A stretch of DNA of 64,000 nucleotides, taken from Escherichia coli. GTDB taxonomy: Bacteria; Pseudomonadota; Gammaproteobacteria; Enterobacterales; Enterobacteriaceae. Below, in pieces: positions 12,382-44,358 of the stretch. Below the pieces are notes generated by a model. That model saw only the letters and a program-made list of their open reading frames with translations. It did no database searches and was not told the origin of the DNA. Each line of letters starts with the position of its first letter. Position 1 is the first letter of the stretch. The stretch lies in assembly GCF_003790525.1 (NCBI RefSeq), contig NZ_CP033635.1; one strand, written 5' to 3'. Made by a program: the position numbers and the translations under genes.

Positions 12382-14037
12382 ATGACTCATCTTCCCCACT
12401 GGTGGCAAAACGGCGTTATCTACCAGATTTATCCAAAGAGTTTTCAGGACACCACGGGTAGCGGCACCGGCGATTTACGTGGCGTTATCCAGCGCCTGGA
12501 CTATCTGCATAAACTGGGCGTTGATGCCATCTGGCTAACCCCCTTTTATGTCTCTCCCCAGGTCGATAACGGTTACGACGTAGCAAATTATACGGCGATT
12601 GATCCCACCTATGGCACGCTGGACGATTTTGACGAACTGGTGACACAGGCAAAATCGCGTGGGATTCGTATCATTCTCGATATGGTGTTTAACCATACCT
12701 CTACCCAACATGCCTGGTTTCGCGAGGCGCTGAACAAAGAAAGCCCTTACCGCCAGTTTTATATCTGGCGCGATGGAGAACCAGAAACGCCACCGAACAA
12801 CTGGCGTTCAAAATTCGGTGGTAGTGCGTGGCGCTGGCATGCGGAAAGCGAACAGTACTATTTGCATCTCTTTGCACCAGAACAGGCGGATCTCAACTGG
12901 GAGAATCCAGCGGTACGCGCAGAGCTGAAAAAAGTCTGTGAGTTCTGGGCCAATCGTGGGGTCGACGGGTTGCGCCTGGATGTGGTGAATCTGATCTCCA
13001 AAGATCCGCGTTACCCTGAAGACCTGGATGGCGACGGGCGTCGCTTCTACACCGACGGGCCACGAGCACACGAGTTTTTGCACGAGATGAACCGCGATGT
13101 GTTTACGCCACACGGGTTAATGACCGTAGGTGAAATGTCCTCCACCAGCCTTGAGCATTGCCAGCGATACGCGGCACTGACAGGCAGTGAATTGTCGATG
13201 ACCTTTAATTTTCATCACCTGAAGGTCGATTATCCCGGTGGTGAGAAATGGACGCTGGCTAAACCTGACTTTGTGGCGTTGAAAACATTGTTCCGCCACT
13301 GGCAACAAGGAATGCACAACGTGGCATGGAATGCCTTGTTCTGGTGTAACCACGATCAGCCGCGCATTGTTTCTCGCTTTGGTGATGAAGGTGAATACCG
13401 CGTGCCTGCGGCAAAAATGCTGGCGATGGTGCTGCATGGCATGCAGGGAACGCCGTATATCTACCAGGGCGAAGAGATTGGCATGACCAACCCACATTTC
13501 ACGCGCATTACTGACTATCGCGACGTGGAGAGCCTCAATATGTTTGCCGAGCTGCGCAACGATGGTCGTGATGCCGACGAGTTATTGGCAATCCTCGCCA
13601 GTAAATCCCGTGACAACAGTCGCACACCCATGCAATGGACCAACGGCGATAATGCCGGGTTTACGGCTGGCGAACCGTGGATTGGCCTGGGCGATAACTA
13701 TCAGGAAATCAACGTAGAAGCAGCGCTGGCCGATGAGTCCTCGGTGTTTTACACCTACCAAAAGTTAATCGCACTGCGTAAGCAAGAAGCCGTCCTGACA
13801 TGGGGCGATTACCAGGATCTGCTGCCAAACAGCCCTGTATTGTGGTGCTATCGCCGTGAGTGGAAGGGGCAAACCTTGCTGGTCATTGCCAACCTTAGCC
13901 GTGAGACCCAACCCTGGCAGCCAGGGAAAATGCTCGGCAACTGGCAGCTTGTGATGCATAACTACGAAGAAGCCTCACCACAACCCTGTGCCATGACTTT
14001 ACGGCCTTTTGAGGCTGTCTGGTGGTTACAGAAGTAA
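12382..14037 (+). CDS. treC: Trehalose-6-phosphate hydrolase (GH13), 551 aa
   Basis: ORF 12235..14037; ATG at 12382 gives MTHLPHWWQNGVIYQIYPKSF, a typical GH13 N-terminus; the longer ORF-track start would overlap the treB 3' end. Confidence 0.93.
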   Translation: MTHLPHWWQNGVIYQIYPKSFQDTTGSGTGDLRGVIQRLDYLHKLGVDAIWLTPFYVSPQVDNGYDVANYTAIDPTYGTLDDFDELVTQAKSRGIRIILDMVFNHTSTQHAWFREALNKESPYRQFYIWRDGEPETPPNNWRSKFGGSAWRWHAESEQYYLHLFAPEQADLNWENPAVRAELKKVCEFWANRGVDGLRLDVVNLISKDPRYPEDLDGDGRRFYTDGPRAHEFLHEMNRDVFTPHGLMTVGEMSSTSLEHCQRYAALTGSELSMTFNFHHLKVDYPGGEKWTLAKPDFVALKTLFRHWQQGMHNVAWNALFWCNHDQPRIVSRFGDEGEYRVPAAKMLAMVLHGMQGTPYIYQGEEIGMTNPHFTRITDYRDVESLNMFAELRNDGRDADELLAILASKSRDNSRTPMQWTNGDNAGFTAGEPWIGLGDNYQEINVEAALADESSVFYTYQKLIALRKQEAVLTWGDYQDLLPNSPVLWCYRREWKGQTLLVIANLSRETQPWQPGKMLGNWQLVMHNYEEASPQPCAMTLRPFEAVWWLQK

Positions 14038-14048
14038 ATCTTCGCTAA

Positions 14049-14079
14049 GCCCCGGTAATGCCTGTCATTCCGGGGTTTT
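14049..14079 (+). terminator. Intrinsic terminator after treC
   Basis: gccccgg ... ccggggc stem followed by TTTT (14076-14079). Confidence 0.6.
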
Positions 14080-14222
14080 GCCTGTCAGCATGTTGTTTTT
14101 GTTGATTTTATAATCAAAAAATTCATTAAAAAATTTACATATCGCTGTAGCGCCCGTCATCCGTACGCTCTGCTTTTTACTTTGAGCTACATCAAAAAAA
14201 GTTCAAACATCCTTGATGCAAA

Positions 14223-14270
14223 GCACTATATATAGACTTTAAAATGCGTCCCAACCCAATATGTTGTATT
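14223..14270. promoter_or_regulatory. Two NrdR-box-like sites upstream of nrdDG
   Basis: gcactatatatagac (14223-14237) and cccaatatgttgtatt (14255-14270), centres about 3 helical turns apart, in an AT-rich promoter region. Confidence 0.6.
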
Positions 14271-14430
14271 AATCGACTATAATTGCTACTACAGCTCCCC
14301 ACGAAAAAGGTGCGGCGTTGTGGATAAGCGGATGGCGATTGCGGAAAGCACCGGAAAACGAAACGAAAAAACCGGAAAACGCCTTTCCCAATTTCTGTGG
14401 ATAACCTGTTCTTAAAAATATGGAGCGATC

Positions 14431-16569
14431 ATGACACCGCATGTGATGAAACGAGACGGCTGCAAAGTGCCGTTTAAATCAGAGCGCATCAAAGAAGCGA
14501 TTCTGCGTGCAGCTAAAGCAGCGGAAGTCGATGATGCCGATTATTGCGCCACTGTTGCTGCGGTTGTCAGCGAGCAGATGCAGGGCCGCAACCAGGTGGA
14601 TATCAATGAGATCCAGACCGCAGTTGAAAACCAGCTGATGTCGGGGCCATACAAACAACTGGCTCGTGCTTACATCGAGTACCGTCACGATCGCGACATT
14701 GAACGTGAAAAACGCGGTCGCCTGAACCAGGAGATCCGTGGTCTGGTCGAGCAGACCAACTCCTCGTTACTCAACGAAAACGCCAACAAAGACAGCAAGG
14801 TGATTCCAACCCAGCGCGACCTGCTGGCCGGGATCGTGGCTAAACACTATGCACGCCAGCACTTGCTGCCGCGTGACGTGGTGCAGGCACATGAGCGTGG
14901 CGATATTCACTATCACGATCTCGATTACTCGCCGTTCTTCCCGATGTTCAACTGCATGTTGATCGACCTGAAAGGCATGCTGACCCAGGGCTTTAAGATG
15001 GGGAACGCCGAGATTGAACCGCCGAAGTCGATCTCTACGGCAACCGCGGTAACTGCGCAGATTATTGCTCAGGTCGCCAGCCATATTTATGGCGGCACCA
15101 CCATTAACCGTATCGATGAAGTGCTGGCACCGTTTGTCACCGCCAGCTACAACAAACATCGCAAGACCGCGGAAGAGTGGAACATCCCGGACGCCGAAGG
15201 CTACGCTAACTCTCGTACCATCAAAGAGTGCTACGATGCCTTCCAGTCGCTGGAGTACGAAGTAAACACCCTGCATACCGCCAACGGTCAAACGCCGTTT
15301 GTAACCTTTGGTTTTGGTCTGGGCACCAGCTGGGAATCGCGCCTGATTCAGGAATCGATCCTGCGTAACCGTATCGCAGGCCTCGGTAAAAACCGTAAAA
15401 CGGCGGTGTTCCCGAAACTGGTGTTTGCGATTCGCGATGGCCTGAACCATAAAAAAGGCGATCCGAACTACGACATCAAACAGCTGGCGCTGGAGTGCGC
15501 AAGCAAGCGCATGTATCCGGATATCCTGAACTACGATCAGGTAGTGAAAGTCACCGGTTCGTTTAAAACCCCGATGGGCTGCCGCAGCTTCCTCGGCGTG
15601 TGGGAAAATGAAAACGGCGAGCAGATCCACGATGGTCGTAACAACCTCGGCGTGATCAGCCTGAACCTGCCGCGTATTGCTCTGGAGGCAAAAGGCGATG
15701 AAGCCACCTTCTGGAAGCTGCTGGATGAACGTCTGGTGCTGGCACGTAAGGCGCTGATGACCCGTATCGCTCGTCTCGAAGGCGTGAAAGCGCGCGTAGC
15801 CCCGATCCTCTATATGGAAGGTGCTTGTGGCGTGCGTCTGAATGCTGACGATGATGTTTCTGAAATCTTCAAAAACGGTCGTGCGTCTATTTCGCTGGGT
15901 TACATCGGCATCCACGAAACCATTAACGCGCTGTTTGGCGGCGAGCATGTGTATGACAACGAGCAGCTGCGCGCGAAAGGTATCGCCATTGTTGAACGTC
16001 TGCGTCAGGCGGTGGATCAGTGGAAAGAAGAAACGGGTTACGGTTTTAGCCTTTACAGCACGCCAAGTGAAAACCTGTGCGACCGCTTCTGCCGTCTCGA
16101 TACCGCTGAGTTTGGCGTGGTGCCGGGCGTGACTGATAAAGGTTACTACACCAACAGTTTCCACCTCGATGTGGAGAAGAAGGTGAACCCGTACGACAAG
16201 ATCGACTTTGAAGCGCCTTACCCGCCGCTGGCGAACGGTGGTTTCATTTGCTACGGCGAATATCCAAACATTCAGCACAACCTGAAGGCGCTGGAAGATG
16301 TCTGGGATTACAGCTATCAGCATGTACCGTATTACGGCACCAATACGCCGATTGATGAGTGTTACGAGTGTGGTTTTACCGGTGAGTTTGAGTGCACCAG
16401 TAAAGGCTTCACCTGCCCGAAATGTGGTAACCATGACGCCTCCCGTGTGTCGGTGACTCGCCGCGTGTGCGGATATTTAGGTAGCCCGGATGCGCGTCCG
16501 TTTAACGCTGGTAAGCAGGAAGAAGTTAAGCGCCGCGTTAAACATTTGGGGAATGGGCAGATAGGTTAA
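14431..16569 (+). CDS. nrdD: Anaerobic ribonucleoside-triphosphate reductase (class III), 712 aa
   Basis: N-terminal ATP-cone (VMKRDGCKVPFKSERIKEAI) and C-terminal glycyl-radical/Zn region (CxxC ... CPKCG). Confidence 0.96.
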   Translation: MTPHVMKRDGCKVPFKSERIKEAILRAAKAAEVDDADYCATVAAVVSEQMQGRNQVDINEIQTAVENQLMSGPYKQLARAYIEYRHDRDIEREKRGRLNQEIRGLVEQTNSSLLNENANKDSKVIPTQRDLLAGIVAKHYARQHLLPRDVVQAHERGDIHYHDLDYSPFFPMFNCMLIDLKGMLTQGFKMGNAEIEPPKSISTATAVTAQIIAQVASHIYGGTTINRIDEVLAPFVTASYNKHRKTAEEWNIPDAEGYANSRTIKECYDAFQSLEYEVNTLHTANGQTPFVTFGFGLGTSWESRLIQESILRNRIAGLGKNRKTAVFPKLVFAIRDGLNHKKGDPNYDIKQLALECASKRMYPDILNYDQVVKVTGSFKTPMGCRSFLGVWENENGEQIHDGRNNLGVISLNLPRIALEAKGDEATFWKLLDERLVLARKALMTRIARLEGVKARVAPILYMEGACGVRLNADDDVSEIFKNGRASISLGYIGIHETINALFGGEHVYDNEQLRAKGIAIVERLRQAVDQWKEETGYGFSLYSTPSENLCDRFCRLDTAEFGVVPGVTDKGYYTNSFHLDVEKKVNPYDKIDFEAPYPPLANGGFICYGEYPNIQHNLKALEDVWDYSYQHVPYYGTNTPIDECYECGFTGEFECTSKGFTCPKCGNHDASRVSVTRRVCGYLGSPDARPFNAGKQEEVKRRVKHLGNGQIG

Positions 16570-16588
16570 TCCTTCCCCCTCACCCTAA

Positions 16589-16610
16589 CCCTCTCCCTCA
16601 AGGGAGAGGG
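16589..16610. repeat. Perfect inverted repeat (10-bp arms) in the nrdD-nrdG intergenic region
   Basis: ccctctccct-ca-agggagaggg; no downstream U tract. Confidence 0.6.
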
Positions 16611-16753
16611 GACCGTTCCGTGCCCCTTCCTGATTCCCGACATAATGAATTGCCTCTGGCCAGTTTTTGTCGTCGCAAGGAGGCAAATGCGTAGCATCGG
16701 GGGACTTCGCCCGTACGCACCAGAGCATTCATGGCGTCAATTGAGAAGCGAAA

Positions 16754-17218
16754 ATGAACTTTCATCAGTACTATCCTGTCGACATCGTCAACGGTCCCGG
16801 CACTCGCTGCACCCTGTTTGTCTCCGGGTGTGTTCATGAATGCCCCGGTTGCTATAACAAAAGCACATGGCGGGTAAATTCCGGTCAGCCATTTACCAAA
16901 GCAATGGAAGACCAGATCATTAACGATCTGAATGACACTCGTATCAAACGCCAGGGGATTTCCCTCTCCGGCGGCGATCCGCTGCATCCGCAAAACGTGC
17001 CGGATATTCTGAAACTGGTACAACGCATCCGCGCCGAGTGTCCGGGTAAAGACATCTGGGTGTGGACAGGCTATAAACTCGACGAACTCAACGCTGCGCA
17101 AATGCAGGTTGTTGATTTGATTAACGTGCTGGTCGACGGCAAATTTATGCAGGATCTAAAAGACCCTTCCCTGATCTGGCGCGGCAGCAGCAATCAGGTG
17201 GTGCATCATTTACGTTAG
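16754..17218 (+). CDS. nrdG: Anaerobic ribonucleotide reductase activating protein (radical SAM), 154 aa
   Basis: ORF MNFHQYYPVDIVNGPGTRCTLFVSGCVHECPGCYN... carries the radical-SAM cysteine motif. Confidence 0.95.
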   Translation: MNFHQYYPVDIVNGPGTRCTLFVSGCVHECPGCYNKSTWRVNSGQPFTKAMEDQIINDLNDTRIKRQGISLSGGDPLHPQNVPDILKLVQRIRAECPGKDIWVWTGYKLDELNAAQMQVVDLINVLVDGKFMQDLKDPSLIWRGSSNQVVHHLR

Positions 17219-17509
17219 TCACTCATCCAGCCGTTTTGTCGCGTCTTCATAAACGGCTGAGTTTTCTCTCTTACCAATAGCTATCACCAACACGAGTAAC
17301 TCTTTATCATTGACGGAATAGACCAGGCGATATCCCAGTGTGCGCAGCTTAATTTTGTAGCAGTCCGGTAAATCCCGCAGTTTAGCCGATGGATTGCGCG
17401 GCCTTTTCAGCACATCCTCAAGCTTTTTTTTAAATTGTTCCCGGACTGTCACGCCCAGTTTTTGCCACTCTTTCAGCGCCCGCGGATCAAACGCCAGCTC
17501 ATAGTTCAT
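17219..17509 (-). CDS. RelE/ParE-family type II toxin (about 96 aa)
   Basis: Inside ORF 17219..17587 the ATG at 17507-17509 gives MNYELAFDPRALKEWQKLGVTVREQFKKKLEDVLKRPRNPSAKLRDLPDCYKIKLRTLGYRLVYSVNDKELLVLVIAIGKRENSAVYEDATKRLDE, which I recognise as closely RelE-like; it overlaps the upstream antitoxin by 11 nt. Confidence 0.85.
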   Translation of the reverse strand: MNYELAFDPRALKEWQKLGVTVREQFKKKLEDVLKRPRNPSAKLRDLPDCYKIKLRTLGYRLVYSVNDKELLVLVIAIGKRENSAVYEDATKRLDE

Positions 17510-17741
17510 CCAGTCGGACCTTAATGGCCTCTTGTGGGTTGGCCAGTCGTTCCCTGACAGTGCGTAACAAGGCTTCTTCACTATCACTGACAGTGAGCGT
17601 TTTTACCGGCATTCGTCCATTTTCCGCAACGTACTGAAACAGCAGCCGCACTGCTTCAGTAGGCGTAATATTTAATTTTTCCAGCACCGCATAAGCCTCA
17701 TTTTTCAGTTTGTCATCCAGGCGGACGTTAAGTGTGGCCAT
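17499..17741 (-). CDS. RelB/DinJ-family antitoxin (80 aa)
   Basis: ORF MATLNVRLDDKLKNEAYAVLEKLNITPTEAVRLLFQYVAENGRMPVKTLTVSDSEEALLRTVRERLANPQEAIKVRLDEL resembles RelB; RBS GGAGGC precedes the ATG at 17739-17741. Confidence 0.85.
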   Translation of the reverse strand: MATLNVRLDDKLKNEAYAVLEKLNITPTEAVRLLFQYVAENGRMPVKTLTVSDSEEALLRTVRERLANPQEAIKVRLDEL

Positions 17742-17765
17742 TATGCCTCCGGTAATTATGAAAAG

Positions 17766-17800
17766 TGTAATGCATTATAGCATTACATATGCATTACATT
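17766..17800. promoter_or_regulatory. Candidate autoregulatory operator/promoter of the relBE-like module
   Basis: gtgtaatgcattatagcattacatatgcattacatt contains three GCATTA(C/T) repeats with palindromic character immediately upstream of the antitoxin start. Confidence 0.55.
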
Positions 17801-17884
17801 CATTTCTGGAAAACGCCTCGCAAAAATGAGGACGACACGCAGGAATATGCCGTGGTGAAGATAGATATTGCGGTGATTTTACGA

Positions 17885-17925
17885 AGGGAGAAGAAAGCGT
17901 TGGGCGGTAACGTTTCACCGCCCAA
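17885..17925 (-). terminator. Putative terminator downstream of cybC
   Basis: Hairpin ttgggcggt ... accgcccaa followed on the minus strand by a moderately U-rich stretch. Confidence 0.4.
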
Positions 17926-17932
17926 TAAGGAA

Positions 17933-18322
<390 letters not shown>

Positions 18323-37733: not shown

Positions 37734-37750
37734 CCCCCAGAAACATCAAC

Positions 37751-37769
37751 GGCTCCTGAATCAGGAGCC
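37751..37769. terminator. Bidirectional terminator hairpin between ytfL and ytfK
   Basis: ggctcctga-a-tcaggagcc perfect palindrome between convergent genes. Confidence 0.7.
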
Positions 37770-37794
37770 GTCTTATTACTGCATAGCACTTTGG

Positions 37795-44335: not shown

Positions 44336-44358
44336 AAGATGCATTTAAAATGCATCTT
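44336..44358. promoter_or_regulatory. NsrR-type operator upstream of ytfE
   Basis: aagatgcattt-a-aaatgcatctt perfect palindrome 27 bp upstream of the ytfE start. Confidence 0.85.

Follow-up and report, generated by a model that had tools for sequence, protein, structure and literature searches.

A hairpin between nrdD and nrdG of Escherichia coli SMS-3-5 belongs to a BoxC (PIT, TM_ECO type A) repeat and lies in a spacer that is polymorphic within the species

BoxC has been described as a dispersed, multi-copy intergenic repeat of Enterobacteriaceae. In the account given by Holder et al. (2015, PMC4666352), the motif was named BoxC by Bergler (1992) and PIT element by Hoyne et al. (2000) and Hoyne & Maher (2002), and Holder et al. 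themselves refer to the same motif as TM_ECO. By their definition a TM_ECO element is composed of a C-rich 9-nt stem, a loop of 3–6 nt, a G-rich 9-nt stem, a 3-nt loop and another G-rich stem of 9 nt. No more than one mismatch is tolerated, and the element is assigned to type A if the second loop reads TTA. The G-rich strand of type A oligonucleotides forms a purine-motif intrastrand triplex in vitro with a Tm of ~82 C, for which both CD and NMR evidence was presented, and polymerase stops at the element in vitro, but in vivo DMS footprinting gave no triplex protection (Holder et al. 2015, PMC4666352). In a correlation that the same authors reported from 56 E. coli genomes, variability was higher at TM_ECO loci than at control loci. 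As far as the work of Hoyne & Maher (2002) is summarized in PMC4666352, PIT elements were inactive both as terminators and as promoters and left RNA polymerase unaffected, and published surveys did not link the position of BoxC to gene expression. When the literature was searched for later work on BoxC or TM_ECO, nothing came up besides Holder et al. (2015), a survey of families of stem-loops from 2008 and papers in which boxC denotes something unrelated.

Here we describe a copy of this repeat located between nrdD (14431–16569, + strand), encoding the anaerobic ribonucleoside-triphosphate reductase, and nrdG (16754–17218, + strand), encoding its activating enzyme. All coordinates refer to the window, that is, the whole stretch of 64,000 nt that was analysed, which is E. 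coli SMS-3-5; the two open reading frames match the annotated nrdD and nrdG genes of that strain at 100%. The + strand at 16576–16610 reads CCCTCACCC-TAA-CCCTCTCCC-TCAA-GGGAGAGGG and thus contains three 9-nt blocks, and the G-rich minus strand of the element reads CCCTCTCCC-TTGA-GGGAGAGGG-TTA-GGGTGAGGGG. When laid out according to the TM_ECO definition, the minus strand resolves into CCCTCTCCC-TTGA-GGGAGAGGG-TTA-GGGTGAGGG with zero stem mismatches, and the TAA at 16586–16588 on the + strand is the TTA of type A on the G-rich strand. Block 1 (CCCTCACCC, 16577–16585, + strand), recognized from the repeats and from the published layout (PMC4666352), would supply the third strand of a potential triplex, and blocks 2 and 3 (16589–16610, + strand) make up an inverted repeat found both by repeat search and by RNA folding. 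The reverse complement of the element has 34 of 35 bases the same as TM_ECO no. 2 of K-12, a type A member with the sequence CCCTCTCCCTTGAGGGAGAGGGTTAGGGTGAGGGT (PMC4666352). Moreover, entry 158 of Supplementary Table S8 (NC_010498 4815701–4815735, CCCTCTCCCTTGAGGGAGAGGGTTAGGGTGAGGGG, E. coli SMS-3-5; Holder et al. 2015, PMC4666352) maps onto the minus strand of 16576–16610 exactly. Since both the sequence and the mapped coordinates of entry 158 agree with ours, this very copy had already been catalogued, and the element and its family, described in 1992, 2000 and 2015, are known. Table S8 lists seven TM_ECO elements for SMS-3-5, one BoxC element being present within the window. Sequence conservation extends into the flank of the unit, where GACCGTTCCGTGC at 16611–16623 (+ strand) is represented by GACCGATCGAGCAC in other copies, and the BLAST matches to these copies reach query positions 49–58, which correspond to 16618–16627.

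The first-pass annotation of this DNA, a model's reading of the letters, had noticed the hairpin and its non-terminator character, both of which stand, without recognizing the third block or the repeat family. Our repeat search recovered the same perfect inverted repeat at 16589–16610, with 10-nt arms at 16589–16598 (CCCTCTCCCT) and 16601–16610 (AGGGAGAGGG) that are 100% complementary and separated by 2 nt. Its placement past the nrdD stop codon was right, and the distance of 20 bp needs a small correction: nrdD ends at 16569 with a TAA codon at 16567–16569, and the hairpin therefore begins 19 nt 3′ of the stop. The C-rich context remarked upstream is real and is block 1 of the same element, at 16577–16585 a near copy of the left arm of the hairpin. 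Direct reading of the sequence 3′ of the hairpin (GACCGTTCCGTGCCCC) also bore out the reported lack of a T-run. With arms of 10 nt or more and loops of 6 nt or less required, four distinct perfect inverted repeats are present in the window; first-order random sequences, used as a chance baseline, gave a mean of 0.43 matching arm/loop combinations. The remaining three, also with short loops, are located at 37749–37771, 44336–44358 and 60925–60949. A CRISPR repeat was considered as well, CRISPR-DR57 being the sole Rfam match in 14000–18000 at E <= 1 (minus strand, 19.7 bits, gathering threshold 39, E = 0.77), and was rejected: the window contains only one copy, and the resemblance is a chance likeness of a G+C-rich palindrome.

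Copies of BoxC are found widely outside this locus. When the spacer was compared by BLAST with 5426 complete E. coli genomes, 4827 had matches, the median being 6 places in each genome. Among the matches listed outside the nrdD–nrdG spacer, all 27 of 27 were confined to query 4–58, the BoxC part, and had no annotated feature beneath them. Such copies lie in the hrpB–mrcB spacer of K-12, in the nrdA–nrdB spacer of strain C6 and in a flgH–flgG spacer on a plasmid. The copy between nrdD and nrdG is likewise intergenic, as expected of a dispersed, multi-copy family. In C6 (1501–1552 of the fetched locus) and in other E. coli strains it is a type A BoxC that occupies the spacer of the aerobic nrdAB operon, so that both ribonucleotide reductase operons can hold the repeat internally. 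On plasmid pMTY18781-3, BoxC units were seen in the flgH–flgG spacer (1500–1680 of the fetched locus). The E. coli BLAST matches include 22 plasmid places; Holder et al. (2015) did not find the motif on plasmids, phages or transposons (PMC4666352).

The nrdD–nrdG spacer is polymorphic within E. coli. The SMS-3-5-type spacer, which is 184 nt long and consists of BoxC and a probable ERIC remnant, is present in 408 of the 5426 complete genomes. About 92% of the genomes lack the SMS-3-5 form of the spacer, and those sampled, K-12 included, carry REP/BIME elements, which in K-12 and one typical strain fill a spacer of 157 nt. Alignment to K-12 stops at 16571 and restarts at 16748, delimiting a sharply bounded swap of the segment 16572–16747. 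A REP consensus (of the GCCGGATG...CTTATCCGGCCTAC type) was found by pattern search in the K-12 allele and not in the window spacer. The flanks diverge from K-12 by 0–4% per 250 nt, which is ordinary between two E. coli lineages, so there is no sign of import together with the spacer, and the idea that it was carried in on a diverged imported segment was rejected. Among E. coli genomes with the SMS-3-5-type allele, three were sampled, with spacer identities of 100%, 96.7% and 94.6%, and their three BoxC blocks are unchanged; in the more distant E. coli E69 the blocks are kept, with changes in the two loops only.

The 3′ part of the spacer, 16648–16753 (+ strand), was recognized by alignment to ERIC-bearing spacers of other genera, with which it shares 74–88% identity, as a probable ERIC/IRU-derived remnant adjoining the nrdG start codon. 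Its right end (CATGGCGTCAATTGAGAAGCGAAA), common to the window and other genera, lies directly 5′ of the nrdG ATG, and the remnant thereby includes the ribosome-binding region of nrdG. The sites of the ERIC1R and ERIC2 primers, which mark the ERIC core, were not found in the remnant with 8 mismatches allowed. The same right end was seen beside the nrdG ATG in many genera, among them Citrobacter, Klebsiella, Phytobacter and Cedecea, and also in E. whittamii. On the other side of nrdG, a type II toxin–antitoxin pair is encoded on the minus strand at 17219–17741, between nrdG and an intact cybC (17933–18319); its 122-aa ORF has a Pfam ParE_toxin match and is annotated as a RelE-family toxin, and its 80-aa ORF is the RelB antitoxin. 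K-12 has no counterpart of 17215–17923 and has cybC as a pseudogene only.

Across Enterobacteriaceae, the nrdG loci of 80 species representatives were fetched and 79 analysed. The first element after the nrdD stop codon is BoxC in 32 species, a REP-type palindrome in 27, ERIC only in 13 and an unclassified element in one, and in the remaining six species the stop codon of nrdD overlaps the start codon of nrdG, leaving no spacer between the genes. The six spacer-less species show that the genes can do without a spacer element. In all 32 species with BoxC first, the sense strand of the first copy is the C-rich one, and a second, inverted unit often accompanies this copy. A type A unit comes first in Enterobacter and Phytobacter, and a type B unit in Pseudocitrobacter and Kluyvera intermedia, which points to repeated insertion or inversion. 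The constant orientation in 32 of the 79 species could reflect selection rather than tolerance, and shared ancestry would also be able to explain it. Conservation of the hairpin in relatives, proposed as a check of the first annotation, was found in this sample of 79 species insofar as a permissive site is occupied time and again by members of a repeat family, and not beyond that.

Some spacers in this set have been expanded. That of Intestinirhabdus alba, upstream of position 1201 of the fetched locus, measures 902 nt and is made up of about five tandem units, each comprising ERIC and the last ~60 nt of nrdD. The spacers of Pseudenterobacter timonensis and Silvania spp. contain the BoxC hairpin in tandem with a constant linker of ~40 nt, at a period of ~61 nt, between a full A unit and a B unit in inverted orientation; these arrays are superficially CRISPR-like, yet their ‘spacers’ are near identical to each other.

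The hairpin thus represents blocks 2 and 3 of a type A BoxC copy, and this copy is very probably no dedicated nrd regulator but a resident of a repeat-tolerant spacer. The spacer would tolerate repeats in general, being filled across the family by BoxC, REP/BIME and/or ERIC or lacking altogether, and the window copy of this dispersed repeat would be a passenger.

A different possibility, which we regard as rather doubtful, is that the element acts at the DNA level, a triplex of its G-rich strand stalling replication on the lagging-strand template and promoting rearrangement, hence the variation of the spacer. The + strand of the window has a negative GC skew, from which the G-rich minus strand would be the lagging-strand template; it is also the template for transcription. 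Such an action would be in line with the in vitro triplex (~82 C) and polymerase stops at the element, with the excess variability of TM_ECO loci over controls in 56 E. coli genomes (PMC4666352), with the sharp boundaries of the spacer polymorphism and with the toxin–antitoxin insertion just downstream. Indeed, both the swap of the nrdD–nrdG spacer and the RelE/RelB insertion 3′ of nrdG fit the published correlation, causation by the element not being implied in either case. Yet triplex protection was absent in vivo (PMC4666352), and Hoyne & Maher (2002), to the extent that their work is related in PMC4666352, saw no in vivo effect. The link to variability is correlative, insertion and loss of mobile repeats could suffice to produce it, and REP and ERIC, which form no triplex, fill the same spacer equally well.

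At the RNA level, ViennaRNA, which models Watson–Crick hairpins, predicts that 16589–16610 folds at -19.2 kcal/mol, with a stem of 9 bp and a loop of 4 nt; taken in isolation, the hairpin has a z-score of -3.5. The first REP hairpin of the K-12 allele comes to -20.5 kcal/mol and starts 23 nt past the stop codon. The whole spacer as RNA has a z-score of only -1.6, so that the long pairing of its ERIC-like part with the nrdG start region is not significant. Being within the nrdDG operon, the BoxC element would be co-transcribed, and the mRNA would contain the C-rich version, with its 9-bp G+C-rich hairpin at -19 kcal/mol. The likeliest effect, if any, would be that of a barrier to 3′-to-5′ exonucleases which shields the nrdD part of the message. 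REP elements are reported to stabilize upstream mRNA in other operons (Newbury et al. 1987) by protecting it against 3′ exonucleases. Given the similarity of the BoxC hairpin to the K-12 REP hairpin in energy and position, a modest and passive stabilizing side effect of BoxC on nrdD mRNA is plausible by analogy.

One could go further and assume a selected regulatory cassette, in which a stem-loop, BoxC here or REP in K-12-type strains, guards nrdD from 3′ exonucleases and so ensures a high ratio of NrdD to NrdG. The stability element considered in the first-pass annotation is of this kind. A cell needs less of an activating enzyme than of the enzyme on which it acts, and this, together with the said effect of REP in other operons, lends the idea some appeal. 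The spacer opens with a G+C-rich palindromic repeat in 59 of the 79 species as raw occupancy (BoxC 32, REP 27), which in the spacer sequences inspected generally lies within a few tens of nt past the nrdD stop codon; BoxC and the K-12 REP are near-equal both in hairpin energy (-19.2 vs -20.5 kcal/mol) and in distance from the stop (19 vs 23 nt); the orientation of the first BoxC copy is constant; and the blocks are unchanged in three E. coli at 94.6–100% spacer identity, E69 differing in the two loops only. Nevertheless, six species do without any spacer, 13 have ERIC only, conservation of the stems is to be expected of any member of a repeat family, compensatory changes were not seen among the copies, and the published surveys found no relation between BoxC position and expression. 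We thus consider such a cassette unlikely. A dedicated role of the hairpin in tuning the nrdD:nrdG ratio is unproven, and it is disfavoured by the ~92% of E. coli genomes without this spacer type, by the REP elements found instead in those sampled and by the six spacer-less species.

The suggestion of the first-pass annotation that the hairpin may be a partial attenuator fared worse. In this reading, a stable G+C-rich hairpin between two co-transcribed genes would act as a partial intrinsic terminator and reduce read-through into nrdG. The stem is there, but the tail that follows it (GACCGTTCCG) lacks a U/T tract, and a terminator scan of 16300–17500 gave nothing at the hairpin, the sole terminator-like site lying inside nrdG. 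The features of a terminator are hence absent from the element. No sigma-70-like promoter from which nrdG could be expressed separately was detected by a scan of the same interval, so that read-through is needed. In addition, PIT elements were without terminator activity in published assays, according to the summary in PMC4666352, and partial attenuation conflicts with this result for members of the family. The same assays, the missing U tract and the negative scan agree with the statement, made at the outset, that the hairpin is not a simple intrinsic terminator. Attenuation at this site is consequently very improbable. Rho-dependent polarity arising from the G-free tract of 29 nt at 16571–16599 is speculative, as a rut site would normally be longer and a third of the tract is base-paired within the hairpin.

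RNA can adopt intrastrand triplexes of the pyrimidine motif, to which protonation of cytosine lends stability, and nrdDG is expressed during fermentative anaerobic growth. As the nrdDG mRNA carries the C-rich version of the blocks (block 1 CCCUCACCC, block 2 CCCUCUCCC, block 3 GGGAGAGGG), one might imagine that BoxC RNA forms an acid-stabilized triplex under these growth conditions and presents a stronger barrier to exonucleases or ribosomes at low cytoplasmic pH. If so, the triplex would shift the nrdD:nrdG ratio with pH. This scenario has little chance of being true; the third strand would contain one mismatch, an A opposite an A–U pair, and six species have no spacer. Finally, that the palindrome is a chance product of a C-rich spacer, with low sequence complexity as the sole point in its favour, can be dismissed, since the pattern CCCTCTCCCNNNNGGGAGAGGG has one match in the window against 0.02 expected, 0 chance matches are expected for the 21-nt left part of the element, and near-identical copies occur in thousands of genomes.

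Annotation of the hairpin as an attenuator specific to nrd is not warranted. As a discovery the copy matters little, and the useful outcome is the negative one concerning nrd-specific attenuation. At the same time, the nrdD–nrdG spacer constitutes a natural series of alleles (BoxC, REP/BIME, ERIC or none) within E. coli and across Enterobacteriaceae, which could be used to test the effects of repeats, BoxC included, on the expression ratio of flanking genes.

How, then, does the element compare with known systems? The boxC of lambda nut and rrn antitermination is an unrelated RNA motif which has only the name in common with it. An intrinsic terminator shares with the window BoxC a G+C-rich stem-loop 3′ of a stop codon, but it has a U tract, which the window BoxC lacks, and members of the BoxC family are without terminator activity. 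ERIC/IRU is, like BoxC, an enterobacterial intergenic repeat, and it is found in the same spacer; however, ERIC is a long imperfect palindrome of ~127 bp, the hairpin under study lies outside it, and the probable remnant in the window lacks the ERIC core. More closely comparable are the REP/BIME (PU) elements, which like the window BoxC are short, G+C-rich extragenic palindromes, often inside operons, and which in K-12-type E. coli take the place of BoxC at the homologous position, their hairpin energy being similar. Nonetheless, REP is unrelated to BoxC in sequence and has neither a third block nor triplex potential, and effects on mRNA stability are documented for REP and not for BoxC. Within the BoxC family itself the window copy is a solo type A unit, whereas five loci of K-12, as well as this same spacer in many other genera, have an inverted A+B pair. 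In its three 9-nt blocks, its TTA second loop and its intergenic site, the window element is the same as BoxC/PIT/TM_ECO type A.
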